Source: Antedon mediterranea
Taxonomy: Eukaryota > Animalia > Echinodermata
Direction of reading: 5' to 3'
NCBI RefSeq assembly: GCF_964355755.1
Contig: NC_092674.1
Span: 22,320,001-22,384,000 of the forward strand
Length of the DNA stretch: 64,000 nucleotides
The notes below the pieces were generated by a model. The model saw only the letters and a list, made by a program, of their open reading frames with translations, was not told the origin of the DNA and ran no database searches. Of the stretch, positions 1,502-56,965 are shown piece by piece; the stretch's first letter is position 1, and each line of letters starts with the position of its first letter. Both the position numbers and the translations under genes were made by a program.

Positions 1502-1615
1502 CTTGGTCTGAGGACACTTTGCTTTGCCTATAGGATTTTATCACCAGAAGTTTATGAAGAATTTCATGAACAGCTTGCAGAAGCATCGAGTAGTCTTGAA
1601 AACAGAGAAGAAAAG
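1502..1615 (+). CDS. ATP11B: ATP11-like exon ([11 protein letters not shown]...ENREEK)
   Basis: ttttatttcag acceptor, AAG|gtaaa donor, 114 nt phase 0-0, GLRTL motif. Confidence 0.92.
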
Positions 1616-33100: not shown

Positions 33101-33897
33101 TCTGGGAAAATGCCACTTTACTTATTTAATAATAAATATCAAGAAGATAGAAATAGGCTAGTTTCATAATTGGCGATTGTTTGTTTTGTTTTAAATTAAA
33201 ATCAGTACATTAATGCAAAATAAAATGTATTTACGTTATGAATTAATTTACAATACGATACAGGTTAAATGTACACCTACTAATGGTATAATCATTATTT
33301 TTCTAAACAGTTAGGATCACTGTGTTTCGGAATTAAATTACATTGTAAGCTTTACAACAAAACGTTCAAATATTCTTTAGGCCTATTTATATAATTTGGA
33401 ATATTGTTTTTTTTATAAATAATTCAAACGTATAATTCTAATTATGATAATTATATAAATTAAAAAACAACAGAATAAACAGTACTAGTCAACTAACTAT
33501 ACTTAACTAAAAAACATTCGTATTATAATTGAATACTAATAGCCATAATAAGTATGAAGTCAAAGATGAACGGTCTGTATACGGTGATCGTGAATAAGCA
33601 AGTCCTCTTTTCTATCCGTTGTCTTCAATTCTTACACCTGTAAAAAAACAAAATGAACAGTAAGTACCGTTTACTATTAACGGTTTGTCATCATGTTATT
33701 TGATAGAACTATATTTATACAAGATGATATTTATTAATGAATTGGTGTTCAAACTTAAAAAAAACTACTATATAGTGTATTCGATAACTTGGTCTTTTTT
33801 AATTCAAATCAACAGGCTTATCCTCTGTACCGTATTCTACATTATTTCAACATTGATTGTGCACTCTCAGTCTGTATATACGATTTATTGGGTTGTT

Positions 33898-34017
33898 TCC
33901 ACGTACAAGCAATGCCAACGATTTTTTAATGGATCGTCCTCCACATACAAACAATGCCAACGAAGTTTTTCAGGGACCGTCCAAATACAAATTAACGACA
34001 TTTTTTTAAGGGATCGC
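33898..34017. repeat. Minisatellite, ~40-42 bp x3
   Basis: tccacrtacaarcaatgccaacga...ggaycg repeated three times with decay. Confidence 0.7.
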
Positions 34018-35371
34018 ATCAATTAAAAAATTCAGTGTCTTTCAGATCTTTAATGTTTTCTTATTCAGGATTAATTTTTCGTTTAACATTATGAGGACAG
34101 TATCATTTTGTTGTGAATATTGGAATTACTTTTACTATCGTTTATTTATTTTATTTTAAACCTAGTATTGTGATTTCCCAAACATGGTCATTATTTCTCA
34201 GTAATAACATCATAACAAGTATTAGAATCATACTTATATATGTATGTATGTCTTTTTATTATTAACAAATTTTGTTAATAATTGGATTCTAGACACTTTA
34301 TACGAATTCCAACCCTTTACACCGTAGTAGCAAAAAAACACAAAATTGCTAAGAAGACAAGAACACATTATATTAGTTACTAAGTGTTTTTTAATCGACA
34401 TATTTTAAAGAATATAAATACATCTTGATGATAAGTATCCATAAACTACAGTACGTGTTTATTATTCTCATTTATATAAACTTGTTCTAAACAAAGCCAG
34501 TAGACCATATCATTATAATAATATTTATTCGGCATGTAATATCATCAAGCAAAATCTTGCCAGGAGCAGGCATAGGCACAGGCCTGAACCGAAGTAACTG
34601 CTCTTCCTCCAAGAAAAATGAAATGAAGTAATATATAGTTGGGTTCAATTAGTATGTCATTGTGTATTATGGTAATTAATTGCTTGTTTTAAAAATAACC
34701 AGTACAGATTTACATAGCATGATTTGCTTCTAGACTATATATCGTTTTCTAGTAACACTTATTATTTTATAACTAGTAAAGAACAAAAATTATGTTTATC
34801 AATAATGTGACGACATTTATTTTTTCACTAAAGATACATATTATCGTCTTGTTATTTTGTAAACATGCCTACGTTTATGAAATGTATTTCATTTGGTTGT
34901 TTCATGTCTTTGTCCTTTGCTCATATCATAATATAAACAAATTAAATATTTAAATGTAGGCCTATTATACTTTTAATAATATACATCTATGGTTTTTTTT
35001 GTTACAATAGTCATAAACAAAATATTGTATTATCTGCTGAACAGTTACACTTAGATGCATTTGTGTTATCTTATAGTGTTTTAATTTATATTTTTAAATT
35101 GTAGTCGTACAGTACTAAGTACCGTAAAAAATAATCAAAAAATTGTCTTATCTGCTGCACATTCCCAATTTAGATTGTTATTTAGGCTTATACGACGCAT
35201 TTAGTAATTGGTAAATTATATTCGTTACATTTTAGAAGATTTATTTAAACATTCTGTTGCTTCAAGTTAATAACATTGGTTTCTTTCGTTAAATTAAATG
35301 TACATTTTAAACTTAAATTTGCAATGATAATATCTTATTATGTCATATAATTAACATTACCTTGCATGGTA

Positions 35372-35630
35372 CTAGTCATTTATATCAGCTGCTGGCCCTA
35401 CGCCTGTGTGGTAGTTTCCACAACTACAGTTTCTCCTTAGGATATATATTACCCGACCTCTACGATTCTCCCGAGTACGGTTGTACTGGCAATTGTAAAG
35501 AGACTTGTGTACTTCACGTTTGGCTCTTAACCCTTTACTACAAACACATTCTATTGTTAATAATATCTTGACCATTGGCCACCTCCTTTTTCCATTTGCA
35601 GTTTGCTTGAGTATGTTCTTCAGAAGCCAT
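35372..35630 (-). pseudogene. Small Cys/His-rich protein family, copy A, frameshifted (MASEEHTQANCKWKKEVANG/KILLTIECVC...YILRRNCSCGNYHTGVGPAADIND)
   Basis: The ATG at 35630 matches paralog starts, but its frame stops early. The conserved C-terminal part is in the +1 frame, with the shift near 35571. An assembly error is possible. Confidence 0.75.
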
Positions 35631-36121
35631 GATGTCAAAGCATGGGAGTTCAATTACTTTCATTGAAAATCAGCATAATTTATACTTAACCATCAACCAA
35701 TCAACGCAGCTGAATACAGTCTTTTCAAAAAGTATAACCAATTAAACATTGAATTAATAGTAATTTAGAAAATAAGTTTGAGTAAAATATAATTAATGAA
35801 TATGTCAACTAAGTTGAGTCTAACTAACACATTTTCCAGATTTAGTCATTTATGAGTGTTACTACACCTCTACAAGTAATAAAAATCAACCACCACCACC
35901 ACCTTTAAAGATTCAAGAGTTGCGAGAGTTGACAGTATTCATTTTAATTTGTTTATTTCTGAGATAGAAGAAGTTTGCTCAATTGTTTTACTTGACCATG
36001 GCCTGATCGAAATCGACGGACTGGCTCACCTTTCCGTATTCTTACGATCAATACGATTTATTAATCATACAATACCAACATTTAATTTGATTTTTAACCG
36101 AGTATACAGTATAATGATACC

Positions 36122-36367
36122 TTAATTCTTTGAAGCGCCTGAACCAGAATGGCTTTTGAATTCTCCACAGTAACAATGTCGACGAAGTATGTTTCTTATA
36201 GGGTATTTTCGGAATTCCAAGCTCCAATAGCAATCCGATCGCCTATGGTCTTCACTTTCGTGATCATTGTCTCGATCACAGCAGCATTCGAGTATTATTT
36301 CGTTGGTACCAGTTTTTTTCCATTTGCAATCTTCATCACGATGCGTCTCAGTCTTGCTGTAGTCCAT
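36122..36367 (-). CDS. Small Cys/His-rich protein family, copy B, 81 aa, intact
   Basis: HRDEDCKW...LECCC...EDHRRSDCYW...ILRRHCYCG matches the family pattern; donor 1 nt after TAA. Confidence 0.75.
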   Translation of the reverse strand: MDYSKTETHRDEDCKWKKTGTNEIILECCCDRDNDHESEDHRRSDCYWSLEFRKYPIRNILRRHCYCGEFKSHSGSGASKN

Positions 36368-38379
36368 CCTTTTTCGTTTTCTTTATATCTTGATTATGAT
36401 TTTCAGTATGATGAAGCCTTCTTATGTTTGGTAAAAATATACGCTTACAATTTCGTTGACAAACACGCAACTGTCAACAATGCTCTGATTTAGAATATGT
36501 TTATTTATGATAGGCCCTATGTCTATTGTGACTCATGCGAAAATAATATCACTTAATTAACATAACTCGGACAGCCCACTATTTCGTATAATATTTTTTT
36601 TTTTATTTGTAAAATAGATATTTTTAGATCAGTAGATTCTGATTACTATTACTTATTATCATGTTTTTATGTACAAACGAATGTGATAAAGATATTTAAT
36701 AAATAACTGTAAAATACATCAATTTCATGTTATTCTAAAAGCTGGATTTGTTGTAGATAGTGTATATTAGTAAGAATGTGTGTAAATGGTCAAATTCCTC
36801 ACCAAAACTACATTGATTACCCTTGAAAATATACTTTGTTGCTACAACAGTAGGCCTAAGGGATTTTGTAAAAGTATCAAAGAACTACTTTACTTTTTGA
36901 AAACATTTGCTTAAGTCATTAGTATTTAATAGAATATCTTTCAAGGAAATCAGTAGCATTTTTTAATAGATAAATTAACGTATTTGATCACAACATTGAA
37001 AGATAATTTCGGTTGACAAAATTACAATTGTTACTTGTTGATAACAGATCCCATATGAAATGTTAAAAGAACATAATATACTTGTTGGCTTAGATATAAT
37101 AAACTTCCACTTATTACTTCCATCACTGTATGAAACCACATTCAGCATTTGTTACAGATGACAAATAAATTTACATTTTTAAATAACGTTTCTACATAAC
37201 TAAACGAATTTAATTAAACTAATAACGAATCACATAATTTCAATATGTTAATATTTTCTTAGGTCATAGTGAATAAATAAAATATTGTTGAAGGAGATAT
37301 AATATTAGCATTTATAAACAGAAAAATAATGATTTTATCGAGCAAAAACACGTTATAGAATTTCGGCCCACAAAATGAAACCAATGGTACAATGATACCG
37401 TAGTACACAAATAAATATAATGGTAAATTCTATACGCTTTAGTATGGATACTAAATGACGAATGACTTTTGATGACACAAATAATTTTAAACCCACTGAA
37501 CTTAGAAGCATTGTGAATACAAAATTCCGATTTGGTTCACAAAGAAAATCTCTCGTGTTGTATATTATTTGCAAATAATGGTAAAGAACTTTCTGTAAAC
37601 GAAGTTATTTAGCAAACGAGAGAACAGCCACGTAAGCTGTAGTAAGCTATTCAGTTTGTTCTTATTAAGCAGTACATGTCTAGCTTTCAATCAGGTCACG
37701 AATTACCGGAAATGTTGACATTGGTGGATTCCCTTATGATCCGTCAAATAGACAATACCTAGCCTGAATACGTCATATATTTTTTGTTATGTATCTGAAC
37801 TTTAACGAATTTATTAATTTAATCTTAAATTAACATGTTTTAATTGATTTCAAAAGATTTATAAACATTCAACGAACATTATTTTAAAGCTATTGCAAAA
37901 TAAAATTAATTTTACAGATTACACCGTGTTCTACATTAACCTGTATGACATAAAGTATATAAGAAATCTACATGATTTCCATTTTAGTTTACATCATTTC
38001 TTCTAACCTCTATTTTCCTCGGTTATTCTATTTGACGTAGTTGCTGACATTGTACTTTCATAATATATATTCCATTTGTTAATTTCTGTATGATTTTTAT
38101 TTGTAAACTTTGTATAACATATAATTATATTCTCAATGAAATTATAACAATATGTTTATTTTATGTATGTCCTTACAATATTAACGAATATAGTTAAATT
38201 ATTAGTCAATTAGCTAAATTAAGCATGTTACTATTTTCTTAGACAATTGTAGTTTAATAAAATGTTGTTAAATGATATTCAGATAAAAACATGTTTGTTA
38301 GCGAGCTAAAACATTGTTGTAAAATTTCGGTTGTCAAAATTACAGATCGTATGATGCAATGCTAGAACAGCTATATCAT

Positions 38380-39830
38380 GTAGTTGATTCCAGTTCTATC
38401 CGCTTTTGTTTAAAAAAAACGCTGTTGCAGTCCTCCAGTGTTTGTATAAAAACACAAATTAGTTTACAAAAGAGATAAAACCTTGTAATGCATACCGTTA
38501 TTTTGAGATAATATTGATTATCGTGGAAATCCCTTTCCTTATGTATTAAAAAAAAATACACTTTTGTTTGCGAAAATTTAAAAAAAATTGATAAGGAATA
38601 TAATGAAATGAATATTGATTATTTGTGGAAATACCAGGCCAACTAAATTCGATTTGATTTACTTTAAAAAAATATACCTCGTGATGCATTAATTATAGTG
38701 CAAAAATCATATCTGGTAAATTCCAGTTCTAGCAGCATTTATATGTAAACAAATTCCAAAACATTGTCGTGATGAATAATATGATATTAATTCGCTTTGA
38801 AATTCCAATTCTATAGTTAGCAAGCTATTCACGTTGTTGTTATTTTAAAAATCTTTGTCTAAATTATTCTTTGTTATTAATCTGAACGTGAACGAATTTA
38901 ATCTTTTATTATAGACTAAAATTATTTATATTAATATTTTTTAATATATTTCATAATAATTTATATTAAATTTAACGAAAATCTTTTTTCATCTGTTGCC
39001 AATATACAAAAAAAAATAAATGAACATATATTTTTTTGATGTATTTTGTTGATTTTTACCTATCACAACATATTATTTGCTATAAGAGTTACTGCTGAGA
39101 AAAATCAATGAGGCATATTATATTTAAAAGAATATTGATTATTGTAGAAATTCTAGTCCTGATAGCATTTGCATTTAAAAATTCCGATTTGATTTAACAA
39201 AGACAAATATACCTCGTGATGCATTATTTATAGTGCAAAGTCATATCTGGTAAATTCCAGTTCTAGCAGCATTCATCTGTAAACGAATTACAGTTTGTTT
39301 TACAAGAATATTGATTTGTTTGGAAATTCCAATTTTAAGTTAGCAAGTAATTCATTTTGTTATTTAAAAAAATAGTTTTTGTTATTAATCTGAACGTTAA
39401 CGAATTTATTCATTTACAAACTGAAATTATTTATAGGCCTATTATTATTATTTATATTATTATTATTTCATAATTTAGATTGTCAACATACGACAATTGA
39501 ACGAAAATTATTTTTCATTTGGACGGTTGCCAATATACCAAAATTCCAAAATTCCAATCTGTATTACAAAAGAGAAAACCATCTGTCGATAAATAATACC
39601 TTAAAAATTCCAATCCTATAGTTAGCAAGCTATTCGTTTTGTGGTTATTTTTTAAATATTTAAAAAAATATGTTTTCGTATTATTCTACTTTAACGAATT
39701 TATTCATTAATGGACTTAAATTATTTATATTAATATGTTTTAATATATTTCCAAATAATTTAGATTGTTAAAATAGGAAAATTTAACAAAAATTATTTAT
39801 ATCTGTTTCCAGTATACCTACAAAAATGTT
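38380..39830. repeat. Degenerate tandem repeat region
   Basis: Recurring cores ggtaaattccagttctagcagcatt (38716, 39249) and aaattccaatt/cctatagttagcaagctattc (38800, 39324, 39605), plus atatacctcgtgatgcatt (38672, 39207). Confidence 0.65.
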
Positions 39831-40980
39831 AAGAACATTTGAAGTTGGTAAATTTCTTTTTCATATAATACGTTATGGTTTGCGTATGGTAATTATTTTA
39901 GTTGTATTTGTCTGTTTTGGATTGGCCAACCTCTAGCAGTAGCATATGTGCTTAAGAAATGTTTGGTTTTTCCTTGCTTTTTTTACATTCGTTTTAGATT
40001 GTAATGGCAGAAAATTTAAGTCTTAACAAACGTTCTTTACTTATTAATGGACTACAATAAATTAACATCAATTAATACATTACATTTAAAGATGTATTGT
40101 CCCTCTGAAAAAAATAATTATAAAAAAAATGTCTGTTGAATATGCCATTTTAATTTCACATAGGCCTAATAGTTATCCACTTTGACCAAGAATTAGATCG
40201 AAAAAAAAATGTATTTACCCGATAAAATAGTAATTTAAAGCAAACAATCGTCAAATTGGCTGCCAGCCAATGGATTTTTGGTTGAATTTAACCATTTATT
40301 TTGTTATTTTATAAGTGAAAACATTTTTTTCTACGGAAGTGATTAACTTTATTAAAATGACAAAATAATCTATTCAAAGTCTGATTTTATTAATCTTTAT
40401 TTTTCATGTTTTTGGGGGAAAATACATCTTTAAGAATCTAAATAAAGATCGGCTTTTGTTTCATCTGTTGACCTATTTCATATAAGCAATTTAATGTAAT
40501 TTTTTAAAAAATCCTATTAACAAAAACAACACACATACCACAACATGTCCACCGAAAACATTTCTCGTTAGCGGATGCGGCGTGTCCTTCTGGAAGAGCC
40601 AACTGCAATAATAACATTTTTTAAATTATTTTGTAAGTTTTACAAATGTATCCTACTGCACGCATCATATCATCATAACCGCAATTGAACTGAAAAGGTT
40701 TAAACGACATCAACATAGTTCATGAGGTGGAGGGGTGTTGCAATGGCTGGAGTTGTGTTATCAAAAATGTTTACCTCTTGGATGCGGTTAGATTGGGAGG
40801 GGAGTGGTTATTGGGATTGATAAGTCAACATAACTATATTTTTTACTACTGGAAAGGTTTGAAACTATATTTTCGAGTTTGTTTGGAAGAGGGTGGAGGA
40901 ATGCCGAGGTATATCAAATAGATACTGGCTTTAAGATCAATCGTTTCTTCTAGTAGCTTTAGAAAAAAATATATACTTAC

Positions 40981-41122
40981 AGTTCATTGCAGTATTCGGT
41001 CCACGAGTACAGATAGTAGAAACAGCTGGGTAAAATTTTCGTAAGAGGGAATTTACGGATATATAAGCAAACCGAAGCGTATCTTCAGCTATCCTATGCA
41101 TCACTCTAAACAAATTAGCCAT
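40981..41122 (-). CDS. Exon 1 of unknown micro-gene M1 (MANLFRVMHRIAEDTLRFAYISVNSLLRKFYPAVSTICTRGPNTAMN...)
   Basis: ATG in aagATGG context, gtaagt donor at 40980, CCAAT at 41235. Paralog M2 differs by an in-frame 3-nt indel. Confidence 0.5.
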
Positions 41123-42250
41123 CTTTTTGTCCTTTGTTACTTTAATTAGTATTGAACTTACTTTAGTAAATAACAAGTGAATAAACCTATCTATGATGTT
41201 ATACATCCATTCGGCCCTAATTTCGGAAACTTATCCAATTACATTTCTACACGTAACTGTTAATTTTCAGACCTACAGTAAGTAACACATTTCGATTCCA
41301 ATTTGATTAATTGAATGACGTTACAGTATTGATCTTGTTGAGATGTAGAATGTAGATTGTTATAGAATCACTAAATAGTAATAATATTCAGTTTGAAATG
41401 GTTTGATGACTTTTCCCATTATTATTATTATTATTATTATTACATTATTATAGTAAAATTATGTAATACAACATAACTGAGATATTTTATTGAAAGACGA
41501 TCTATCATGGTAGTACATGTCATTCTGGAATAAACTGTCTGTCATTCTTTCTATTCCTTTCCAAAGGCTATACAAGTTTCGGATGGTGATGTTGATTTGA
41601 TAATTATAAATTCAAAAATCATTAGGCTTAAATACAATTTTTTGAATGATCAGTTTCTCAAGTTTAATGCTACTCTCAGCTTCAGTGACATGCATTTAAC
41701 CTTCGTCAATATGTACCTCATTACATCTAGTTGTATTCGTTTGTTTTTATTCTATGCTTCGTTGCCCATTATTTCGTTCATTTACCATCGTCTTTGTTTA
41801 TCTACAGTATAATCATGTTCAAATTCTAACCAATATAACTTCATCCTCATTATCACCAGCAAAACAGTTATAACCAACAAAACGGCATTTTTTTCCCTTG
41901 TAATCAACCATTTTAGGCCTCATTACCATAATCAGTATCACTGTTATCATCAACACTAACACCATCAATTAAATCTATCTTATCGACCGGTAATCACTTA
42001 TAATTGTTCGTAATAGTAATTAGTTTTTCATTGATGTCGTCATCGTCATTACAAAATACACAAACAGATTTCCTCCGATTTGAAACAGCATATTTATTAG
42101 ATTGTAACGTTTGTTAGTAACATAGAATTACCCATCATTATTTTTTCTAAATTAACTACTGTCAATAATTTTCAATATCACTGTCTGGTTTATAATTCCG
42201 TGTGCCTGTAAATTATGTTAGTATCTATTCTTCGGAGATCCCACATAAAA

Positions 42251-42322
42251 GCCAAAGTGGTTCAATGGTCAGTTAATAATGCATATCAAGTAAAAAGTTC
42301 CGAGTTCGAATCCAGGTCAAGC
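42251..42322 (+). mobile_element. tRNA-derived SINE head / decayed tRNA
   Basis: A-box-like TGGTTCAATGG and B-box GAGTTCGAATCC; acceptor stem does not pair. Confidence 0.55.
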
Positions 42323-42962
42323 TGATTTTATTCATTCTGACAGATTTATCATTTCTAAATTACGGGTTACTAATTAATTTCCAGAGAGTAAATAAAAAAT
42401 AAATATTGTTGTTGTATGATCCGTATGCCAAAATCTACCGCCTTTATTCATAACCACGTTTCACTACATAATAATTACGTTGAAACTAAACTAATAATAA
42501 CAATAAATATGTTTGAATATTTGTCATTTAATATCGTCGCAAAAATATTATTTTTGAAAATAAGTTGTGAGTAAGTCCACATATTCCGTGCTCAGATCAG
42601 TTATGTACTTAGAATACTGCCACTCCCACTTGTAAACTGTTAACTTAATCTTCTTGAGATTCTATAACTGAAAGAAACATTGGAATATTCATCATAGTTT
42701 ACTTGCTTTAGTCTTTGTTAAATATTCAATTCATTATTTATATTTTATTATGTATATGTTTTATTGAGTCTCATAAATTAATCTACACAGAACCTGGATT
42801 GGCCATCCATAACAAATATGGCAATACATAAATATTTTTTGTTTCTCATTGAATCCTTTACGATCGATTAAAATGATCAAATTTTCATTTTGATATATTA
42901 AAAACTAATTGAAATAATATCTTTAAGTGAGTACACTATTATTTATGTAGACACCACTTACT

Positions 42963-43196
42963 TTAATATAATTGATTAGGTCCTATATTATTGTGAAACT
43001 TTCCACATACGCAGTTTCTTCGTAAAATGTAACGCGTTTGGCCATGGTGGTATGCATATCTGGGCTCTTTAATATAAGAACATGACCTGTGTTCCTCGGT
43101 TTGTATCACTTTACCAGTACCATCGCAATAGCATACCAGAATCCAGGTGTCACCATTTTTAATCCAATCGCATTTTTCAGAGTTATGTTCCATCAT
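42963..43196 (-). CDS. Small Cys/His-rich protein family, copy C, ~77 aa, intact (alternative in-frame ATG at 43211)
   Basis: HNSEKCDW...LVCYC...TEEHRSCSY...YILRRNCVCGKFH; TATA and CCAAT upstream; gtaagt donor 1 nt after the stop. Confidence 0.8.
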   Translation of the reverse strand: MMEHNSEKCDWIKNGDTWILVCYCDGTGKVIQTEEHRSCSYIKEPRYAYHHGQTRYILRRNCVCGKFHNNIGPNQLY

Positions 43197-43238
43197 GGAA
43201 GACTCAATCATACGAATTCTAATTGCGCTAACTAGTAA

Positions 43239-43280
43239 TTTTATAAAGTTATTTCTTAAAATCGACTGACCAATCAGCTT
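43239..43280 (-). promoter_or_regulatory. TATA box plus CCAAT box promoter of copy C
   Basis: Minus strand AGCTGATTGGTCAG then TATAAA 25 bp downstream; same layout at 52920-52960, 53844-53884 and 55909-55955. Confidence 0.7.
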
Positions 43281-44989
43281 TAAGAGTAATGATCATTCGT
43301 TATAAAAAATCATTCAACTGTTTTGGTTCAGCAACCACATCTCCACTGTGATATGATTTGACAAAATATAAATTATACGACAAAATATTTTTCTGTGGAA
43401 ATGTATATTTTATTGGAATTCTTTTTGATATACATTCTAAATATATAAAACAATTAATTAAAATATACACTATTTGTGAAATTTTCGATTTGCCTTTTCA
43501 TAATAAACAGGTTTGAGTTGCTGGAAAATATAAAATGAGTTATTGTTGAGAAATGCATTGATAAAAAGAAAACAGAACTTGATTTTTATTTTTAATTGAA
43601 CTCGCTAAATATCAAAAACATAAAATAAACTTCATAATTGATTAATTTAGAGTAGGGTAATATTTTGTAATAACTGTTCTTATTGTAAATTTAATTTTTC
43701 ATTTCCAATATTCTCGTAATGATATACAAGAAACTAACGAATATTTTATGCAGGCCTACAGTATGTATTAAATTATAATTTTGTAATAACTGAAAGAGAA
43801 TAATGCATACAGTGTTGACATTCCCTCGTAGGATCTCAAATGTTATATTATATCTCTTGAATTAGGCGATATCTGTATAATGTTTTATGTAAGAGAAATT
43901 CTTCTCTGGTAATATAGACAAAGTTATTTTCTGAATTCAATTTGATCAAATCAAATCATTTCGCTGTGTGTCATATTCCGTGCTACTTCATTTGGGTCCA
44001 CTAGAACTGAACTGGATGTTCCATTTTATATCTGAAAGAAAATAATAATAATATAATATTAATTATTTTAGTTTATCACTAATAATAGCAATGTAAGTTT
44101 AATAATAGGAAGTTGTCGGAACTTGACGTGTGAACTGTATGACAGTGATCTTGAACATACACAAGCGTCTATTCCGTGTCCAACTTTCTCTTCTTACACC
44201 TATAAAAACAATAATGTGACGACATTTATTTTTTACTAAAGATACAATTTATTGTCTTGTTATTTTGTAAACATGCCTACGTTTATGCAATGTTTTTCAT
44301 TTGGTTGTTTCATTTGTCCTCTGCTCATACAGTATTAATGTAGAATTTCCTTCTTCTTTATTGTATCAAACAAAAATGTCAATGCAAAAGGTAGCCAAGA
44401 TATAGCCGAAGCTAGGTACCTTTTATCTTAACTAACTTAAGCTACGAAATTAACAAATAAATAACAGAACTTAAAAGAAAATAAAAATGTGATAACGTCA
44501 AAAACAATAATAAGTATCATAATATAAATAAATTACATATTTACATAATAACGTTTCATATTGAATTTGGAATGTTATTGAATGGTATATTTATATTGAA
44601 AATATCAATAGTACTAGTTACAGTATAGACATATTTAAAATAGTGTAAGCTGGATTTAAACTATAGATTAATTTCTGTAGGCCTATACTTTTAATAATAT
44701 ACATCTATAGTGCCCATGTTTTTTTTTTATTGCAATAGTCATAAACAAAATATTGTATTATCTGCTGCACATTCCCAATGTTATATTGCTGTTTAGACTT
44801 GGTAAATTATATTTTTTACACTTTATAAGATTTATTTTAACTTTATAAGATTTATTTAAACATTCTGTTTCTATAAGTTAATAACATTGGAATTTGGTTT
44901 CTTTGGTTAAATTAAATTTACATTTTAAACTTAAATTTGCAATGGTAATATCTTGTTATGTTATATAATTATCATTACCTTGCATGGTA

Positions 44990-45235
44990 CTAGTCATTCA
45001 TATCTGCTGCTGGCCCTACCCCTGATTGGTATTTTCCACAACTACAGTTTCTCCTTAGGATGTAAGATGCCCGACCTCTAGGAATTTGATAGTAGTTGCA
45101 ATTGAAATTAGACTTGTGTTTTTCTGTTTGAACGCCTAAATGTTTACTACATTGACAGTTCCTTGTCAATACTCTTTTACGACCGACCACAGATATCTCC
45201 CATCTGCAAAGTGCGTTAGTATGTTCTTCGTCCAT
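44990..45235 (-). CDS. Small Cys/His-rich protein family, copy A', 81 aa, intact
   Basis: EEHTNALCRW...LTRNCQC...TEKHKSNFNCNY...YILRRNCSCG; clearest internal duplication; donor 11 nt after TAG. Confidence 0.8.
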   Translation of the reverse strand: MDEEHTNALCRWEISVVGRKRVLTRNCQCSKHLGVQTEKHKSNFNCNYYQIPRGRASYILRRNCSCGKYQSGVGPAADMND

Positions 45236-45723
45236 GATGCTAAAGCGTGGAGTGTAAATTACTTCTTTTGAAAATCAGCATAAAGTATATGTAACAATCA
45301 ACCAATTAACGACTGCAACTGAAGAAAGTGTTGTTTTCAAAAGGTACAACCAGCCAATCGAAGGTTGCATAGTCATTTTTTATTTGATAAAAAGTAGTTT
45401 GAATAAAATATAATTTCAGGGTGTTCACGTGGTAAACAACTCAAGTCAGGCCTAACTAAAACACATATTCAATTCAATTTATCATAAACTACCACCACCT
45501 TTAGAAAGTCCAGAGTTGGAAGAGTATAAATAAATGTAATATTTTGTGATTATGAGATAGAAGTTCGCTTAATTGTTTAGTTAATATTTTAAAAAATTCT
45601 TTTACTTGAACAGTAATCGAAATCGACGCACTGGCTCACCCTTCCATATTCTTACGATTGATACGATTTAGTGTTATTAAGGATTTGCAAAAAAAAAAAG
45701 AAGAAATAGCAGTATTATATACC

Positions 45724-46036
45724 TTAATTCTTTGAAGAGTTTGAACCAGAATAGCTTTTAAATTTTCCACAGTAACAGTGTCGACGAAGTATGTTCCTTA
45801 TAGGGTATTTTCGGGATTTTTATTTGAAAAAAAGTAGTTTGAATAAAATATAATTTCAGGGTGTTCACGGTGTTCACGGGATTCAAAGCTCCAATAGCAA
45901 TCTGATCGCCCATGGTCTTCACTTTCGTGATCTTTGTTTCGATTACAGAAACATTCGAGTATTATTTCGTTGGTACCCGTTTTTTTTTCATTTTGCAATC
46001 TTCATCACGATGCGTCTCAGTCTTGCTGTAGTGCAT
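45724..46036 (-). pseudogene. Small Cys/His-rich protein family, copy B', disrupted
   Basis: Near-identical to copy B but frameshifted in the A-run (~45980-45994, Trp codon lost) and carrying a ~65-bp insertion at 45819-45883. Confidence 0.85.
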
Positions 46037-48843
46037 CCTTTTTCGTTTTCTTTATATCTTGATTATGATTTTCCGTATGATGAAGCCTTCTTATGTTTGG
46101 TAAAATTATACGTTTAGTATTCGTTGACAAACAAGCAACTGTCAACAATGCTTTGATTTAGAATATGTTTATTTATGATAGACCCTATTGTGACTCATGC
46201 GAAAATAATATCACTGAATTAACATAACTCGGACAGCCCACTATTACGTATAATATTTTTTTTAATTTGTAAAATAGATATTTTTAGATCAGTAAATTCT
46301 GATTACTATTATTTATTATTATGCCTATTAAATTCAAATTTATGATTATGTTTTTATTTACAAATTAACTAATTGGTGAACGCCTAAAATCGGATTGCTT
46401 TGAATGTTATAAAGATATTTAATAAATAACTTAAAACGACCTAATTAATTTGCGTGAGATTGCCAGCAACAGAAATAAGTGGCTTTTGTTATTTTGAATC
46501 TTTATTTTTACGTTATTTTATATTTTTTGTTGTTGTAGGATGCATGCATGTAAGAAGGTATCAGATTTTGTAAATCCACAGTGCGTGGTTTTGTTACATT
46601 TTTTGGAATAAAGTTACCTATATATAATAAATAACTGTAAAATACATCAATTCCATGTTAGTTTAAAACCTTTGGCAGCTGGATTTGTATTATATTAGTC
46701 AGAAAGTGTGTGAAAGGTCAAATTCCTCATCAAAACTACATCCATTACGCTTGAAAATATACGTTGTTCAAATAACAATAAGGGATTTTGTAAAAGTATC
46801 AATGAACTACTTAACTTTTTGAAAACATTTGCTTAGGTCATTAGTATTTAATAGAATATCTTTCAAGGAAATCAGTAGCATTTTTCAATAGATAAATTAA
46901 CGTATTTTATCACAACATTGACAGATAATTATATAAATAATTTTATTAATAATAAATTAAATAATAATAACAGATCTCATATGAAATAAACGTATACTTA
47001 TTGGCTTACATATACAGTAATAAACTTCCACTTATACAGTAGATCCCATGATGTAGTAATAGTATACAGCAAATTTCAGTCTGCCCACCTCTGTAGGAAA
47101 CCAAATTCAATTTACATTTTTAAATAATGTTTCTACATCACTAAACGAATTTAATTAAACTATCAACGAATCACATAAATTTAGCATGTTAATATTTTCT
47201 TAATAGGTCATAGTGAATTAATAAAATATTGTTGAATGAGATATAATATTAGCATATATAATATTAGGATTTATAAACAGAACATTTTATCGAACAAAAA
47301 CACGTTATAGAATTTCGGCCGACAAATTTAAACCAATGGTACAATGACACCGTAGCACACACATAAATATAATGGTAAATTCTATCCACTTTAGTATGAA
47401 TACTAAATGAGGAATGACTTTTGATGACACTAATGATTCTAAACCCACTAAACTTAGAAATATTGTGAATACAAAATTTCGATTTGGTTCACAAAGATAA
47501 TCTCTCGTGTTGTATTATTTGCTTTCATCTCTAAACGAATTAAAATTTATTTAGCAATGGAGGAAACAGAAACGTAAGCTATAGTAAGCTATTCAGTTGT
47601 TCTTATTTAGCAGTACATGTCTAGGTTTCAATCAGGTCACTAATTACCGGAAATGTTGACATTGGTGGATTCCCTTATGATCCTTCAAATAGACAACAAT
47701 ACCTAGTCTAAATACGTCATATATTCTTTGTTATGTATCTGAACTTTAACGAATTTATTAATTTAAACTTAAATAAACATGTTTTAATTGATTTCAAAAG
47801 ATATATAAACATTCAACGAACATTATTTCAAAGCTGTTAACAACATATTTCTTTCAAAAAAAAAACCTGATTTCACAGATTACACCGTGTTCTACATTAA
47901 CCTGTATGGCATACAGTCATAAAAGTAAAATAAGAAAACTTTATGCTTTCAATCGTACTTTGTCATAACCTCTATTTTCTCGGCTATTCTATTTGATGTA
48001 GTTGCTAACATTGTAATTTTAAAATGTATATTCCATTTGTAGATTTCTGTGTGAGTTTGATTTGTAAGCTTTGTATAAAGCAATACATATTCTCAATGAA
48101 ATTATAACAATATATTAATGTATGTCCTTACAATAGTAAAGAATATAGTTAAACTATCAGTTAATTAGCTAAATTGAGCATGTTACTATTATTTTAGACC
48201 ATTATAGTTTAGTAAAATGATGTTAAATGAGATATATTAGCATTTATATTTAGATAAACACATGTTTGTTAGCGAGCTAAAACATTGTTGTAAACTTCGG
48301 TTGGCAAAATTACATATCGTATGATGCAATACTAGTACATCTATAGTATCTAGTTGATTCCAGTTCTATCCGCTTTTGTTAAAAAAAAAACCACCATGTA
48401 TAATGAAAAACAATTTTGTGATGACAATGTTGCAGCTTCTCTAGTGTTTGTATAAAAACACAAATTGGTTTACAAAAGAGATAAAACCTTGTAATGCATA
48501 CCGGTACTTTGGGATATTGATTGTCTTGGAAATTCCATTTCTGACCTCTTTGTATTAAAACAAAAAATGCAATTTGGTTTGCGAAAATTAGAAAATATTG
48601 ATGAGGAAAATATTGAAATGAATATTGGTTATTTGTGGAAATTCCAGGCCTAACACTAATGGTTTTTGTATGCATATAAATAAAACACTATATGTAAAAT
48701 GTAAAAATCAGAAAATAACGAAAAAAGTATAAAACGGAAATTTAATGTACGAAAATGAAATGTGAACGAAACATGTATGAAATATTGAATGAATAAAGGT
48801 GATGGTTAACCACAAAAGAGAAAAAAAAATATTTTGTAAGTTA

Positions 48844-49725
48844 GGGTATGTTCAGACTCACGGAGTTACGGTGGAGTTATCTACGCAAGGCGTACGGTAA
48901 TCCGTGGCGTTAAAAGTCAAGGTGTTCAGACACAACGATTAGCATTCCAAACGTCTTGCGTTTAAAGCGGAAGTTCCGTCATACCGAAACGGCCGATGGG
49001 ATACATACACAATAACAACAACAGAGAGCTGAGAGTGACACGCGCGAAAGTTTACAACACTAGCTAGGCCTAGCAATATAATACAATGTTACCTTCAAAT
49101 GTAATGGTTTTTTTGCCGATTTTTTTTGCAAATCCTTACAGAAGATAGTAATTTCGAACATAATTATTACACGGACAATGACTTTGCCATTATTTGTATG
49201 ATTTTAATTAATTTTGTGAAATCATGTCACCGACGCCAACTTCGTCAGGAAGAATTTTGCAGTTTAGATGCAATTTCTTTAAAAACAGCCATCTTGTTGC
49301 AGGCGCTAGCTTTCCAATTCCTAATTTCTATCTTGTCTATAAATTCAGGGCTGCCCCATAATGAAATCAAATCAGCCACTTCTGTACTTTTCCATGTAAC
49401 ACGTTTCATTTTAATTCGAATGTTGCTGTTGATCTAGGCTAGCTCGAGGAATAGCTATATTGTTTTGCTATTAAAAAAAAACCTCGCGAATAGACTGCTG
49501 CTAATTGCGGTCGTGTCTTTTCATTGGCTGACGTTGACCGGAGGTTGAAATCACTGATGCATCAATGGATTAGCCTTATGAAATCTACCCTCTCCCGCTG
49601 GAGTTATTAACGCCACTGGCGCGGAGTAACAGCTCCCTAACGCTAATCCGCGGCATGGTTCAGACACAAAAATATGTACGCCGCGTACATAACTCCACCG
49701 TAACTCCGTGAGTCTGAACATACCC
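48844..49725. mobile_element. PIF/Harbinger non-autonomous element, 882 bp
   Basis: Perfect 37-bp TIR GGGTATGTTCAGACTCACGGAGTTACGGTGGAGTTAT, TTA TSD on both sides; absent at the paralogous site near 40635. Confidence 0.92.
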
Positions 49726-50081
49726 TTAGTACAGAGTTTTACAAATCTGTCCTCTACTGCACGCATCATATCAGTAACCGCAATTGAACTGAAAAGGTTT
49801 AAACGACATCAAAATAGTTCATGGGGTGGAGGGATGTGGATTGTTGCAAGGACTGGGGCTGTGTGCTATCAAAGTGTTTACTTCTTGGAGGCGGTTGCAT
49901 TGGGAGGGAGTGATTATTAGGATTGTCAACATAACCATAGTTTTTACTACTGGGAAGGGTTGAAACTACATTTCCGAGTTTGTTTGGAAGAGGGTGAGGG
50001 ATTGACGAGGTATATCAAATAGATACTGGCTTTAAGATCAATCGTTTATTCTAGTAGCTTTAGGAAACATTACATACTTAC

Positions 50082-50220
50082 TGTTCATTGCAGTATTCGG
50101 TCCACGAGTACAGATACTACGAACTGTCGGGTAAGCTCGTAAGATGAAATGTACGGATACATAAGCAAACCGAAGTGTATCACCAGCTATCCTATACATC
50201 ACTCTAAACAAATTAGCCAT
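50082..50220 (-). CDS. Exon 1 of unknown micro-gene M2 (MANLFRVMYRIAGDTLRFAYVSVHFILRAYPTVRSICTRGPNTAMN...)
   Basis: Paralog of M1 with the same gtaagt donor and the same phase. Confidence 0.5.
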
Positions 50221-51382
50221 CTTTTTTCTCTGTATTAATCTTACTTTAAGTAGTATTGAACTTACTTTAGTAAATAACAGATGAATACACCTATCTATGA
50301 TGTTATACATCCATTAATGTCTGAAACTTATCCAATTACATTTCTACACGTAGGCCTACCTGTTTATTTTCAGACCTACAGTAAGTAACACATTTCGATT
50401 CCAATATGATTAATTGAATGACGTTACAGTATTCATCTTGTTGAGAGGTAGAATGTAGATTGTTTATAGAACATTACAGTAGTTCGTATACCTTATATGA
50501 ACATGTTATAGGGAATGCTAAGCGCCTGTTATTTTTATTGTAAATTGCGATTGACATTCACTGAATCTATAATCTTTTCATACTAAGCTGGTTTGATGAT
50601 TTTTCCCACTATTATACTATAGTAACATTATGTAATACAACATAACTGAAATATTTTATGGAAAGACGATCTATCATGGTAGTACATGTCAGTCTGGAAT
50701 AAACTGTCTTTTGTTCATTCCTTTCCAAAGGCTATAAAAGTTTCGGATGGTGATGTTGATTTGATAATTATAAAGTCAAAAACACAATTTCTTTAATAAT
50801 CAGTTTCTAAAGTTTAATGCTACTCTCAGCTTCAGTGACATGCATTTAACCTTCATATTGACCTCATTGAATCAAGTTGTATTCGTTTGTTTTATCTTAT
50901 GCTTCGTTGCCCATTATTGTTATAAATTTTCGTTCATTTACCATCGTCTTTGTTTATCTACAGTATAATCATTTTCAAATTCTAACCAATATAACTTCAT
51001 CCTCAAACGGTCGCCAACAATACGGATTTTTTTTTTATTTATAATCAACCCTTATAGGCCTCATTACCATAATCAGTATCACTGTTATCATCAACACTAA
51101 CACCATCAATTAAATCTATCTTATCGACCGGTAATCACTTATAATTGTTCGTAATAGTAAGTTTTTCATTGATGTCGTCATCGTCAATAAAAAATACACA
51201 AACAGATTTCCTCCGATTTGAAACAAGCATATTTATTAGATTGTAACGTTTGTTAGTAACAGAGATTTACCCATCATTATCTTTTCTAAATTAACTACTG
51301 TAAATAATTTTCAATATCACTGGCCGGTTTATAATTTCGTGTGCCTGTAAATTATGTAAAATTATCTATTTCACACATGACA

Positions 51383-51454
51383 GCCAAGGTGGTTCAATGG
51401 TTAGTTCATAATGCATATCAAGTAGAAGGTTCCTAGTTCGAATCCTGGTTGTGC
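51383..51454 (+). mobile_element. tRNA-derived SINE head / decayed tRNA (duplicate of 42251)
   Basis: TGGTTCAATGG A box, GTTCGAATCC B box. Confidence 0.55.
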
Positions 51455-52048
51455 TGATTTTACTAATTCTGAAAGATTTGTCATTTCTAAATCGTTTTCG
51501 GGTAATTAATTCGAGTAAATAAAAAATAAAGTTTATTGTATGATCCGTTTCACTACATAATAATTATGTTGAAACTAATCTAATAACAACAATAACTATG
51601 TTTGAACACAACATTTGTCATTTAATATCGTCTCAACAATAGTGTAATAGTGTATATAATAGTATTTTGGACAATAAGTTGTGAGTAAGTCCACATATTC
51701 CGTGTTCAGGTCAGGTATAGTTTTGACTATATATATACTGCCACTCCAACTTTTAACATAATCTTCTAGAGATTTTATACCTGAAAGAAAAAATGCAATC
51801 TCTATTAACAACATAGTTTACTTGCTTTAGTGTTTGTTGAATATTCAATTCAATATTTATATTTTATTATTTATATGTTTTATTGAGTCTCCGAAATTAA
51901 TCTACACAGAACCTGGATTAGCCATCCATAACATATATGGTAATACATAAATAATTTATGTTTCTCATTGAATCCTTTACGATTAAAATTATCAAATTTT
52001 CATTTTGATATATTAAATAATAATTTAATACGACTTACTGTAAGATAA

Positions 52049-52876
52049 TTATTGATTAGGTCCTATGCCACTATGAAAGTTTCCACATACGCAGTTTCGT
52101 CGTAAAATGTAACGCGTTTGGCCATAGTGTGTATATCTGCGCTCTTTAAAGCTCAGGTACAGGCATGAATTTTAAATATAATATTTGGTTAATTGTACAT
52201 AAATCAAATATTTGTAACAGAAATCGAAACGAAAAAACATGAATTTCCCTTAATATGGTATCAAATACAAAATTTGGCAAAATTCTTCCATAAAAACCAG
52301 GAAGACTTTTTTTCAGTAGTTAGGTAGTTAACCTAATGTAATAACATATCTGGTGACTCCCTAGATGGTGAAAAAAGATGGTGGATATACGGTGGATAAT
52401 TTTTGCTATAGCATGAAAATAAAAATCTGAAGTTGAATAAAAATATCAGAAATGTAATATTCAAGTTATATTACCTATATTTAGTCATCTGATAACATTT
52501 TTTACCACACCGTTTATTTTTCATAGCTTTTTTAAATTCCTCTCTATTTACAAAATGTGTGTACAAAAGAATAGAGATTTTACTGTGTAATTTGAACTAT
52601 CCCCCCACTGATAAGAAAGTGCTTATTTTCAAAAAGCTCGTGTAACACAAATAAAATCCCAAAAATTATGAAACATAGGGGAAACTATAGATCGATAATT
52701 ATTGGAATGTATGATCAATAGAAATTTTTTGCCCGCACCTGGCCTTTAATATAAGAACATGACCTGTGTTCCTCGGTTTGAATCACTTTACCAGTACCAC
52801 CATCGCAATAGCAAACCAGAATCCAGGTTTTTTCATTTTTAATCCAATCGCATTTTTCAGAGATATGTTCCATCAT
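52049..52876 (-). pseudogene. Small Cys/His-rich protein family, copy C', interrupted by a transposon
   Basis: MMEHISEKCDW...EEHRSCSYI | KERRYTHYGQTRYILRRNCVCGNFHSGIGPNQ*. The ORF is intact once the insertion and one TTAA are removed. Confidence 0.88.
52150..52745. mobile_element. Kolobok-type non-autonomous DNA transposon, 596 bp
   Basis: TTAA TSD (52146-52149, 52746-52749). Imperfect TIRs AGCTCAGGTACAGGCA / AGGCCAGGTGCGGGCA start with purines (Kolobok-like, not the CCY of piggyBac). Empty site present in copy C. Confidence 0.8.
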
Positions 52877-53566
52877 GGAAGACTCAATCTTACGAATGCT
52901 AAGTGAGCTAACTAGTAATTTTATAAAGTTATTTCTTAAAATCGACTGACCAATCAGCTTTCAGAGTAAAGAATCATTCAAATGTTATGGTTCAGCAACT
53001 ACATTTCCACTGTCACTATCATATAGGCCTACATAAGTTGACAAATATAAGTCATATAAAAACATGTTTTCCTGTGGAATTTTATATTTTATTGGAAAAA
53101 ATGATTTAAAACACAGTCTAAATATACAAACAATCGAATTAAAATATACATTATTTGTGCGATATATTATGTTCGATTTACCTTTTCATTTTAGATACAA
53201 TATTATTAGACATGGTACTTGGTCATACGTCGAGAAACATAAACGATTAGTTCATACCAAATTATGCTAATACTAAGTGATTATTTAGATATCTGGATAT
53301 TAATTTTAGTTATTTTTTCCTTGTCAATGTATCTGCACCGTCCGCTTTTACTTGCTGCAGTTGTCATTTTTCCACCAGTAAACTTCAAAATTCATGATGT
53401 GGTTTATATCTGAGAGAAACAATAATAATAATTAAATAAAATAATAATGTTAATACCGTCTTTTTTTCGTAGGCAATATTATTTATTGTCTTCAAAATTG
53501 ACAAATGAATGCGTAAATTAGTACAACATTTAAGCTATCAAAATGACCTACTCTTGCCTCACGTGC

Positions 53567-53803
53567 TTATTGAATGTTTGGTCCTATACCAGAATGATAT
53601 TTTCCACATATACAGTTTCGACGCAATATATAACGCACTTTACTGTAGTACTGAAAAGAATGTCTATAATAAGAGCAGGTATCAGACCGATGAACTTCTG
53701 TTTTTATTTCATTACGAACGCCATTGCAATAGCAAATCAATCTCCAAGTTTTACCGTTTCTATTCCGTCGTTGCCAGGAGCAAGTAATTGATTTATGTAA
53801 CAT
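53567..53803 (-). CDS. Small Cys/His-rich protein family, copy D, 78 aa, intact
   Basis: MLHKSITCSW...LICYC...TEVHRSDTCSY...YILRRNCICGKYHSGIGP; TATA at 53844-53849, CCAAT at 53874. Confidence 0.8.
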   Translation of the reverse strand: MLHKSITCSWQRRNRNGKTWRLICYCNGVRNEIKTEVHRSDTCSYYRHSFQYYSKVRYILRRNCICGKYHSGIGPNIQ

Positions 53804-55634
53804 CGTAGAAAAGGTAATTATACGAATGTTGATGTGAGCTGACTTTATACACATTTCGCTAAAATTCGACTGACCAATCAGCTTTCAGAGTAAAAGATGA
53901 TTCATAATAAGGTATTCTTGAATAAAAGTTGTACGGTTTGGGTCATGATAAATACCATGTACACGCTTTGCACCACAGGTCACTAGACATGATACTTTAC
54001 GAGACTGAATTGAGCCCATGTCTAGGCCCAATTATTGTCACTTTTATCTTTCATGATTTGCTTGATAATATGAAATTAATAATTATTGACAAATACATCG
54101 ATACAGACACTAAACAAAACTCACTCTTGGATTGATTTTATTTTAAGTTAACTCACTAAAAATCGAAAAACATAAATAAACTTCATAGTTGAATATTTTA
54201 GACTATACGTAATCCCATGATGGTTCCGGATCTCGTCTTTTGTCAATTTTATTTGTTCGTTACAATATACTGTTAAACTTATTGTTAGTGAAGTGAATAG
54301 GCTGAGCGTGTATATATCTAGATTGACACTGGTTTTCAATCGCTGAACATCGATGCATAATAATAAAAAAGTATACTTAAATTTCATACCACATTAAACT
54401 AAGTTACTGATCTGATAAATAAAATTATTAAATAATAAATTGCGTTTAATAATCATTTCCCTCTTAGCAATAATTTGTTCCTGTAAATCTATTTTTCCAA
54501 TTCTTTGTTTAAATTTGTGAATTAATTATTTTAATCATCATTACTTTGTATTATTATATTGGGTGATCTGTAACACAATCGTGTTCCAATGATTTGCATT
54601 ATCTTTTTCACATTTATATCAAAATCAACATCATCATAAATTAAATCTATATAATATAGATGCTTTAGTCTTCAAGTCTGAAGTTTGCACTAAATTGGAA
54701 GAAGAAGACCGTACAGTTATAATTAATGATAATTGTTTGTAATAATCAATGCAATTTCCAATATTATTGTTAAAAAGATTTCCTCTGATTTTAAATAATT
54801 ATTATATTAATAATAATTATTAAATTATAACTACCATAGTTTTAAATAGAAATGCATAATATTTTGGTTTCTAGAAACACTAATCTTATCAAATCTCAAA
54901 TTTTATACTGTGTTATCTTATAATATACAGTGAATAATTTTTTCCGAATTTGATCAAATATAATCATTTGGTTGTGTGTCTGTCAGTCCATACAGAGTTG
55001 ACTTCAGTTAGGCTGGTACACTAGAATGCTTGATGAATCCTTTTGAAATTTGAATTCTTGATGTCTTTTATACCTGAAAGAAAATAATAATAATAATTCT
55101 ATTACATATTAATTTTTTCTGTATTAAAAAAAAGTGTTTTTAAATGATTATAAAACTAGAAATAGAAATTATTCGCCGTAGAATTTTAGTTTTAATTTAA
55201 TTTTTATATTAGGCCCATAATAATAATACTTGTCATTAATGTGACCAACAAAGAGCCGCGGATCATACTTTGACCAATCATAAGTTTTATTTGATCGCTC
55301 GTCGTCATCGACTTTCTAAAGTACTCATGGAATATGGCTAAAAAATAAACAAATAAACAAATAACATTGAAGTTTTCTTCCAACAACACCAGTATGCATG
55401 TCGACGCCATTTTACTTAGTTTACTTAGTGAGTTGAGACATAGTAATGAAATTATTCATGTAATTTATAATATGAATGCTTAAGTGTATTTTTTAGATAA
55501 ATAGAATATGACCGGGTCACATTCTTGCCGTTATTGGAAACTGCCTTTGCAACTTATCTCTCTTTTTGCTTTGAAAATAATTAAAGGACAAAGCAATATA
55601 CAATACTCATGTTGACGTATCACTTACCGTGGAA

Positions 55635-55871
55635 TCACTGATTTGGTCCTATACCACTATGGAATTTTTCACATAAACAATTTCGTCTCAGTATATAACG
55701 CACTTGGCCATAGTTATAAAGTTTTATTTCTTTAGAATAAGAACATAAAGGACCCCAATGTTCCTCCGTTTTTATTGCTTTAGGAATACCGGTACCATCA
55801 CAATAGCAAGCCAGTGTCCATGTGTATATGTTATTTCTTAGCCAATCACATTGGGCATTTGCATGTGCCAT
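55635..55871 (-). CDS. Small Cys/His-rich protein family, copy E, 78 aa, intact (alternative ATG at 55889)
   Basis: MAHANAQCDW...LACYC...TEEHWGPLCSY...YILRRNCLCEKFHSGIGP; TATA at 55909-55914, CCAAT at 55945; gtaagt donor 7 nt after TGA. Confidence 0.8.
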   Translation of the reverse strand: MAHANAQCDWLRNNIYTWTLACYCDGTGIPKAIKTEEHWGPLCSYSKEIKLYNYGQVRYILRRNCLCEKFHSGIGPNQ

Positions 55872-56764
55872 CGTGGAAATGTGAATCATACGAATAATAA
55901 TTCTGTGTTTTATACACTTACACTTTAATCTTAAAATCAACTGACCAATCAGCTTTCAGAGTACAGTAGTAATGATTTATTAATGCAAAAATGCATGGAT
56001 GATGTTATATGAAAAAGGAAAGCACAGTTTTTGTTCACCACTCTTACTATCATTTGATAAATATGAGTTAAAAATTAAAAATACATATTTTCATGTTGAA
56101 AGTTATTCTTTTATTGGATAAACAATTTTAAAAATAATAGATATGCATTTTCATATTGGTGCTGCATTACAAGTGAAGTGCTTGTAAATAGAAAATGAAT
56201 TAGGATAATTGAATCGATTCCAATTTAATTAAACTCATTAAAAGCATAAACGTAACACATAATTGAATATATTTATTGAATATATTGATTATTATTGGTC
56301 CCACAATTGTTTTAAACGTTGATCTTTCCCTTTTATTCAAACTTTTGTATTTTCAGATGTACTTGTAAAGAGATATTATAATAATTCTATAGTATAACTA
56401 GAAAGCCTATGTTCTGAGAAAAGAATTGCATTAATTTAAATTATTTTCAGATAATTAATTACCATATTTATTCGAATAAACGCCTCGCTCGAATAGACGC
56501 CACACCACATGCAACAACACATTTCTATTTGTTTTTTATTCATTGATTGGCATCTACAAATTACTAAGCATTTTGATACAGTTTTTACTGTATTTTATCC
56601 CTCTCGATATTTATTGTGTTGCATTTTTTAAATCTAAGCTAAGCTAACAGTGTTCATTTCAAAATTTAAGATAAATATTTAGAAACGCAGAAGAGTTATT
56701 TGATATTCAATAAACTAAAAATAATTAAATAAAATATATGTTGTGTGCTTTTCACCCTACCTAA

Positions 56765-56965
56765 TTAATTGCTTGGCGTAGTTGATCCCTTTGCAGAATG
56801 ATATACTTTCGGTACACTGCTTCGTAATATTTGTTCAGAACTCTTGTACTGTACAGCACTAGATTGCTGTTCACTTACATCCTCCTCCTCCTCATCATCA
56901 GGTTCTTCCTGTTTAGTTTCTTCTTCCTCATGTTCACCAATCTTCTTTTGCTGATAACTTGACAT
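56765..56965 (-). CDS. Unknown small acidic, probably disordered protein, 66 aa
   Basis: ATG-initiated Glu-rich ORF; TATAAA at 57072-57077 and CCAAT at 57101; ag|gtaggg donor 4 nt after the stop, as in neighbouring genes. Confidence 0.6.
   Translation of the reverse strand: MSSYQQKKIGEHEEEETKQEEPDDEEEEDVSEQQSSAVQYKSSEQILRSSVPKVYHSAKGSTTPSN

Follow-up and report, generated by a model that had tools for sequence, protein, structure and literature searches.

We analysed a stretch of 64,000 nucleotides (nt) from the crinoid Antedon mediterranea (contig NC_092674.1, positions 22,320,001 to 22,384,000 of the forward strand; the whole stretch is called the window here, and positions are counted from its first letter), in which a group of small genes lies on the minus strand. 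We read this group, with a probability of roughly 0.68, as a birth-and-death array of two-exon microprotein genes that are spliced onto shared non-coding last exons and that likely encode two-zinc beta-hairpin proteins. That the gene array is real is practically certain, and we are confident that last exons are shared between copies; the sharing, though real, covers only some of the copies, and some of it is inferred. An earlier, sequence-only reading of this DNA had described an array of short open reading frames (ORFs); the array stands, and what that description had overlooked is the two-exon structure with shared non-coding last exons.

The array and its copies

Protein and DNA profiles run over the 64-kb window (G+C content 30%) recovered eight minus-strand paralogues, here copies A to H, and no clear ninth. 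These searches bore out the eight paralogues and the coordinates that had been proposed for them, and also the count of five intact copies. The intact copies encode proteins of 77-81 amino acids (aa): B (36122..36367, 81 aa, donor GT at 36120), C (42963..43196, 77 aa, donor GT at 42961), D (44990..45235, 81 aa, donor GT at 44978), G (53567..53803, 78 aa, best donor GT at 53562) and H (55635..55871, 78 aa, donor GT at 55627). Copy A (35372..35630, donor GT at 35360) is frameshifted in this sequence and stops after 30 aa; an A-type contig of run X9 differs from it by nine letters and one gap. Copy E (45724..46036), a recent duplicate of B, carries a frameshift and a 65-nt insertion and stops after 24 aa. 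Copy F (52049..52876) is one gene, a recent duplicate of C, split by a 604-nt insertion (52146..52749) whose inverted termini are imperfect and whose two ends carry TTAA. We take it to be a Kolobok/T2-like miniature transposon; its high copy number was deduced from the many loose contig ends at 52145/52749 in all four runs. In the tree, B paired with E and A with D, and C, F, G and H were left in no resolved order. Much of the region from 34.8 to 43.5 kb is repeated at 44.2-53.2 kb with 70-91% identity. Within an 86% identical duplicated segment lie two similar minus-strand ORFs of 89-90 aa (40937-41206 and 50038-50310) that gave no Pfam match. The 65-nt insertion of E (45811-45877) copies nearby sequence, and contigs without it were found in all four runs; they may reflect cross-mapping from B or an intact E allele.

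The intact copies are real genes under purifying selection. The ratio of non-synonymous to synonymous change (dN/dS) was 0.11-0.40 in six of the ten intact pairs, the other four being saturated, and pairs that include a broken copy gave 0.43, 0.47 and 0.77. Across the five intact proteins 16 columns are invariant, and 12 of them vary synonymously, so the conservation acts at the protein level and is not chance; two of the remaining four are Met and Trp, whose codons have no synonymous option. The outcomes that the sequence-only reading had named as fatal to itself, in dN/dS, in transcription and in family, transposon or viral searches, did not arise.

Coding first exons and non-coding last exons

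In each copy the whole coding sequence lies in the first exon, and each ORF stops 1-11 nt before a splice donor. When the eight copies were scored together with a neighbouring ORF (ORF I, below), eight of the nine ORFs had a donor scoring at least 5 within 11 nt after the stop, compared with 6% of random 16-nt stretches, the copies being related to one another. The donor of B scored 4.2, yet B is the copy whose splice was shown. We rejected a read-through of the stop codon into the following exon, since stop and donor are 1, 4, 7, 10 or 11 nt apart and so differ in frame.

The transcript evidence consists of assembled contigs from runs X5 and X9, which come from separate studies and separate organisms; their RNA nature was taken from intron joints and not from the run records, and both carry GT-AG joints at the exon borders of the neighbouring ATP11 gene, which served as an RNA control. 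In both runs, CT..AC joints connect the donor of B with position 33637, the top of 588 scored acceptors. These contigs support transcription of at least B, a D-type copy and H. Copies C and G had little or no X5 or X9 contig cover, which is no sign of silence.

The exon entered at 33637 (30992..33637, minus strand) ends at AATAAA signals at 31004 and 30992. A second last exon (54142..55073, minus strand) starts at the second-ranked acceptor, its far end being taken from AATAAA sites; record 26 of X9 covers 55070-54299 of it, after 211 unlisted letters. Two further minus-strand acceptor sites lie at 44031..44199, that at 44199 being a paralogue of 33637 and that at 44031 a paralogue of 55073. 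Through a variant at 44201, X5 and roughly half of the X6 depth lack the AG of the acceptor at 44199, and the choice of last exon by D may thus differ between individuals. One X9 contig passes from 54299 into 42449-like sequence without splice signals, which suggests a different copy arrangement in the X9 organism.

Could the small ORFs be upstream ORFs of a bicistronic transcript, with the main product encoded in the shared exon? Such transcripts, for instance SNURF-SNRPN and ASDURF-ASNSD1, do have this layout: exon 1 holds a complete ORF, and a common exon follows downstream. However, no main ORF was found downstream in either exon: the 33637 exon contains no ATG-started ORF longer than 44 aa and no stop-free stretch longer than 57 aa, a search of Rfam over 29500-64000 gave no match there or elsewhere, and its poly(A) signals, at which it ends, face the ATP11 gene. 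The 55073 exon contains a single AT-rich ORF of 79 aa without a Pfam match. We consider a bicistronic arrangement very improbable.

Upstream of the coding sequence, a CCAAT box was found 71-78 nt before the ATG in six of the eight copies (A, C, D, F, G and H), and motif matches placed a putative CCAAT-box and TATA-like promoter of H at 55915..55955 on the minus strand. No acceptor-like site was detected in the 70 nt that precede the ATG in any of the five intact copies. B and E share an AP-1-type site 161-168 nt before the ATG (36170 and 46200 region), and the B/E subfamily may be regulated differently. A CCAAT box resembling those of C, F, G and H also occurs at 55281, inside the H intron, with no family ORF behind it; it is possibly a relic promoter.

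Copies that probably share a last exon

Besides B, a D-type transcript reaches the 33637 exon. A D-type contig of X5, with a depth of 32.7, differs from D at ten positions in 462 nt and ends at the donor in 25 loose letters. A joint that reaches 33637 has this depth too, 32.7, and the match of its contig to A is confined to the part in which A resembles D. Taken together, the D-type contig, the equal depth of the joint and the restriction of the A match to the D-like part indicate that the D-type transcript uses B's exon. The paralogous exon at 44199 would not give such a joint, since its first 27 nt match those at 33637 at only 15 positions.

At the other end of the array, an X5 contig covers H (55625-56016). 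With contigs ending at 55625 and 56758, and with 26 loose letters, the data are compatible with a meeting of H and ORF I on an exon that begins with GTA; they fit 55073 or 51780, not 33637, and that 51780 fits equally well counts against choosing 55073 from these ends. The 211 unlisted letters of X9 record 26 account for the depth over H (13.79 compared with 13.8), and this depth together with the cover of record 26 favours 55073 over 51780. H and I thus likely share the 55073 exon, by indirect support. A single common exon for the whole array had been considered and was dropped because paralogous acceptors are present.

Two copies of a predicted zinc-binding repeat

Each protein is built from two copies of the repeat E-x-H-x(3-5)-C-x-[WY]-loop-[YL]-x-L-x-R-x-C-x-C. 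The sequence-only reading's four motifs exist, though not as separate motifs: they make up two copies of this one repeat. The two halves of D align with each other (E 2e-4, in a single comparison), and in A and E, pieces from the N-terminus match that part of the profile which covers the second repeat. All ten proteins, namely the five intact ones and five homologues from outside the array (below), contain exactly two H-C-C-C repeats, a pattern that had been chosen for them. Four conserved Cys/His ligands per repeat, as expected of a zinc finger, are present, and they are invariant in the intact copies.

Two AlphaFold models were all-beta, with a predicted local distance difference test score (pLDDT) of only 59 and 55. 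In both, strands lie between the ligands and the inner Cys residues of the first repeat stand on adjacent strands, an arrangement that would suit one His-Cys3 zinc site per hairpin. We predict, as probable, that the proteins bind zinc; each repeat would likely hold one zinc through His and three Cys on a beta-hairpin, and a possible alternative pairing would join the CxC to the following H-x-C.

The earlier claims that the proteins lack a transmembrane segment or signal peptide and are mostly basic agree with our results: the highest 19-aa Kyte-Doolittle mean was only 0.55, and the isoelectric point (pI) exceeds 8 in four of the five intact proteins (B, 6.5). Neither the hydropathy profiles nor the upstream acceptor scan revealed the signal peptide of a secreted cysteine-rich, defensin-like protein, there being no acceptor just upstream that could bring a signal-peptide exon. 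Nucleic acid is favoured as a tentative predicted partner because four of the five intact proteins are basic.

Small size, the lack of a signal peptide, 6-7 Cys and 3-5 His per protein and tandem amplification would also suit metallothionein-like zinc buffers or detoxifiers that bind no macromolecule. Metallothioneins are likewise small intracellular Cys-containing proteins in tandem arrays, and they consist of about 30% Cys with almost no aromatic residues. The array proteins, in contrast, contain just 7.4-8.6% Cys and 6-10 aromatic residues, conserve residues that are not ligands (Trp/Tyr, Leu and Arg) and are predicted to form strands; moreover, no metal-response element was found in ten promoters, a weak point since about one was expected by chance. 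A buffering role thus appears improbable.

SWIM, TRAF/SIAH, WRKY/GCM and THAP domains are small beta-rich zinc fingers, and the array proteins resemble them in their Cys/His ligands on short strands, the CxC pair and the tandem repeats. Nine finger patterns were scored on the five intact proteins, and none fits any of them. The SWIM pattern CxC-x(n)-CxH matched none of the five, and the SWIM model (Pfam PF04434) reached at best 13.5 bits, against a cut-off of 19.6, in one of ten sequences; the THAP, WRKY, BED, C2H2, TRAF/SIAH, GRF and UBR patterns likewise matched none of the five, with no Pfam match.

Relatives outside the array

A profile search of 1.84 billion representatives gave five matches at E ≤0.001 (E 2.9e-8 to 5.3e-4): one cluster of 17 sequences, two single records, and one uncharacterised protein each from the bivalves Mercenaria mercenaria (XP_045199355.2) and Mactra antiquata (KAL4220697.1). 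All five have exactly two repeats and no Pfam match above the cut-off. In the reciprocal test, a profile built from these five alone, run against 2059 window segments, recovered parts of each of the eight copies, seven of them at E <0.002, with the first false match at 0.44. The bivalve proteins have the two repeats of the array proteins, with identical His/Cys spacing and with Glu, aromatic, Leu and Arg residues at the same positions; unlike the array proteins, they are 138-147 aa long, their N-terminus is acidic and rich in Ser, and their linker is longer. They are 27-28% identical to C.

Contrary to what had been supposed, the family is therefore not lineage-specific, given two-repeat homologues in two bivalves and three further records; our own candidate of a crinoid-specific orphan was dropped once the full profile search gave outside homologues. 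Two other suppositions were upheld. The family matched no described one, having no Pfam, PDB or significant fold match, and it is absent from the protein collection, in which none of ten exact look-ups was present. Word-indexed searches found no relatives among 831 and 2088 candidates, and the PDB sequences gave no match. Foldseek found nothing at E ≤0.001 in the PDB and viral libraries, and VIA-align found nothing at Z ≥5, the best structural Z scores, from low-confidence models, being 4.8 (root-mean-square deviation 4.2, 64 aligned) and 3.8 (2.9, 61 aligned). The ESM Atlas returned nothing significant (best 0.78 in one search, none in another). Such blank fold and family searches do not prove a new fold. 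Titles and abstract openings in the literature contained no case of such a family in crinoids or echinoderms. Our verdict is that the family represents an unnamed ancient two-repeat domain.

An origin from a virus or mobile element, captured by animals, with the array as a domesticated and perhaps defensive remnant, would agree with the patchy known range (crinoid, two bivalves and three further records) and the fast turnover. In addition, the viral collection contains one stretch that codes for a relative of the outside record P0122, no locus being returned, and P0122 itself sits on a 46-kb contig; that record may have a viral source. Against such an origin, the copies have spliced 3' untranslated regions (3'UTRs). 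C, D and G sit on long unique X1 contigs (543, 681 and 1759 nt, zero differences), unlike the insertion in F, and so do not behave as ORFs of a high-copy dispersed element with termini or a transposase. The family profile had no match in metagenome, viral or prokaryote contigs, P0122 had none in metagenome contigs, P0121 had no viral match, phages and PHROGs gave none, and no viral fold was found at E ≤0.001. We judge a viral or mobile origin unlikely, if a little less so than the buffering role.

Weighing the shared-exon reading

Several observations weigh against a reading of shared last exons and zinc-binding products. The assembled contigs give no start, end, strand or level, and B is the only copy with a joint in both runs. 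The link of D to 33637 comes from one contig, matched by depth, and the D-type joint could stem from a haplotype with a D-like gene elsewhere. C, F and G have candidate acceptors of their own (near 42667 for C and at 53409 for G), so that sharing is not array-wide. The depths of three joints sum to about 230, compared with 40.8 for the shared-exon contig, although contig depth cannot rank parts; and in one joint of depth 79.3 into the shared exon (33634-36121), three letters at the junction are different, perhaps because the exon start has a second allele. The motif counts are not independent, the copies being kin, and B and E have no CCAAT box. B and two of the five outside homologues are not basic, and the low-confidence AlphaFold models conflict on the second repeat. 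Finally, dN/dS between D and A is 0.77, and five of seven X5 changes in D, among those listed, are non-synonymous.

The strongest competitor, at somewhat below even odds, is an ordinary tandem two-exon family in which each gene has its own 3'UTR exon and sharing is a side effect of the loss or mutation of acceptors, with no regulatory role. At least seven candidate acceptors, several of them paralogous, the different arrangement in the two organisms (X9 record 26) and the breakage of three of the eight copies are in keeping with it, and loss of the 44199 AG in X5 would by itself push D further on. In contrast, B skips the promoter and exon of A to reach 33637 in two organisms, the D-type transcript skips the intact-looking acceptors at 44031 and 42667, and the dissimilar ORF I appears to use the exon of H.

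Under the reading of shared last exons, every first exon would have its own promoter and splice to the next usable last exon. Tandem duplications would have copied promoter and first exon more often than the last exon, leaving the groups A/B/D and H/I on one 3'UTR each, and further duplicates of this kind would add new proteins onto an existing UTR. According to one report, an exon junction more than 50 nt past the stop triggers decay (PMC13187750); the short stop-to-junction distances here, below 50 nt, would thus allow escape from nonsense-mediated decay. Each H-x(3-5)-C...C-x-C repeat is predicted to clamp one zinc at the open end of its beta-hairpin. A partner inside the cell, with nucleic acid as the likeliest candidate, would be bound by the hairpin loops, which are variable and for the most part basic.

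In the protocadherin, UGT1 and sDscam clusters (PMC2819257, PMC4835542), variable exons join coding constant exons. Like these vertebrate (protocadherin, UGT1) and chelicerate (sDscam) systems, the array has tandem paralogous first exons (eight paralogues, each ending in a donor), frameshifted members, and birth and death; promoter-like motifs precede most copies, and B and a D-type copy splice over neighbours to a downstream exon common to both. Unlike in these clusters, the stop lies in the variable exon and the shared exon is UTR only, with no ORF longer than 44 aa in the 33637 exon that could encode a shared protein region, and several last exons are each common to a subset. Because the shared exon is non-coding, the array is not a member of this class. 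In zebrafish Ugt5a/5b (PMC2819257), a 5' non-coding exon is shared, so that there too the whole ORF lies in one duplicated exon and paralogues share a non-coding exon; Ugt5, however, shares a 5' exon and one promoter, whereas the array shares a 3' exon and apparently has separate promoters. Titles and abstract openings contained no report of a layout in which complete paralogous ORFs act as alternative first exons and a non-coding last exon is shared.

A bolder view, which we hold to be rather doubtful, would combine an undescribed double zinc-hairpin class with a protocadherin-like promoter-choice locus whose constant region is purely 3'UTR. If this were true, promoter choice would select the microprotein while the common UTR sets one post-transcriptional programme even for dissimilar proteins, and the double zinc-hairpin class would be old enough for echinoderms and molluscs to share. 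As it stands, the two-repeat Cys/His domain spans two distant animal phyla, and its ligand pattern is directly testable. Annotation would tend to present such loci as a single long non-coding RNA that has many isoforms, and more may be hidden in animal genomes.

Neighbouring features

Beyond H lies ORF I (56765..56965, minus strand), an acidic, Cys-free ORF of 66 aa with a CCAAT box, a TATA box, a stop 4 nt before a donor and a family-like tail. Its homology to the family is weak: its profile score was reached by 19 of 2000 shuffles and the pairwise tests were not significant. ORF I is possibly a degenerate family member. An X5 contig continues through ORF I from ORF J, a Cys-rich ORF of 37 aa in two exons (58977-58898 and 58283-58250, minus strand) that is not a family member. 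The minus-strand intron joint 58283-58898 was found in X5 and X9 and in neither X1 nor X6. ORF J has five Cys, a CaaX-like CIIL end and CCAAT and TATA boxes upstream, and may be a lipid-anchored micropeptide.

On the other side, an ATP11-type P4-ATPase gene (1502..25998, plus strand) stands tail to tail with the array. Fifteen pieces of it were matched, at 90-100% identity to Antedon mediterranea ATP11 and mostly at 68-96% to that of Anneissia japonica, which assigns the window to a feather star. A fragment of a retrotransposon without long terminal repeats, with a zf-RVT domain, lies on the minus strand inside an ATP11 intron (20996-22063). Contig depth is very high over 26770-29070, a region of nested inverted and tandem repeats that probably represent miniature transposons.

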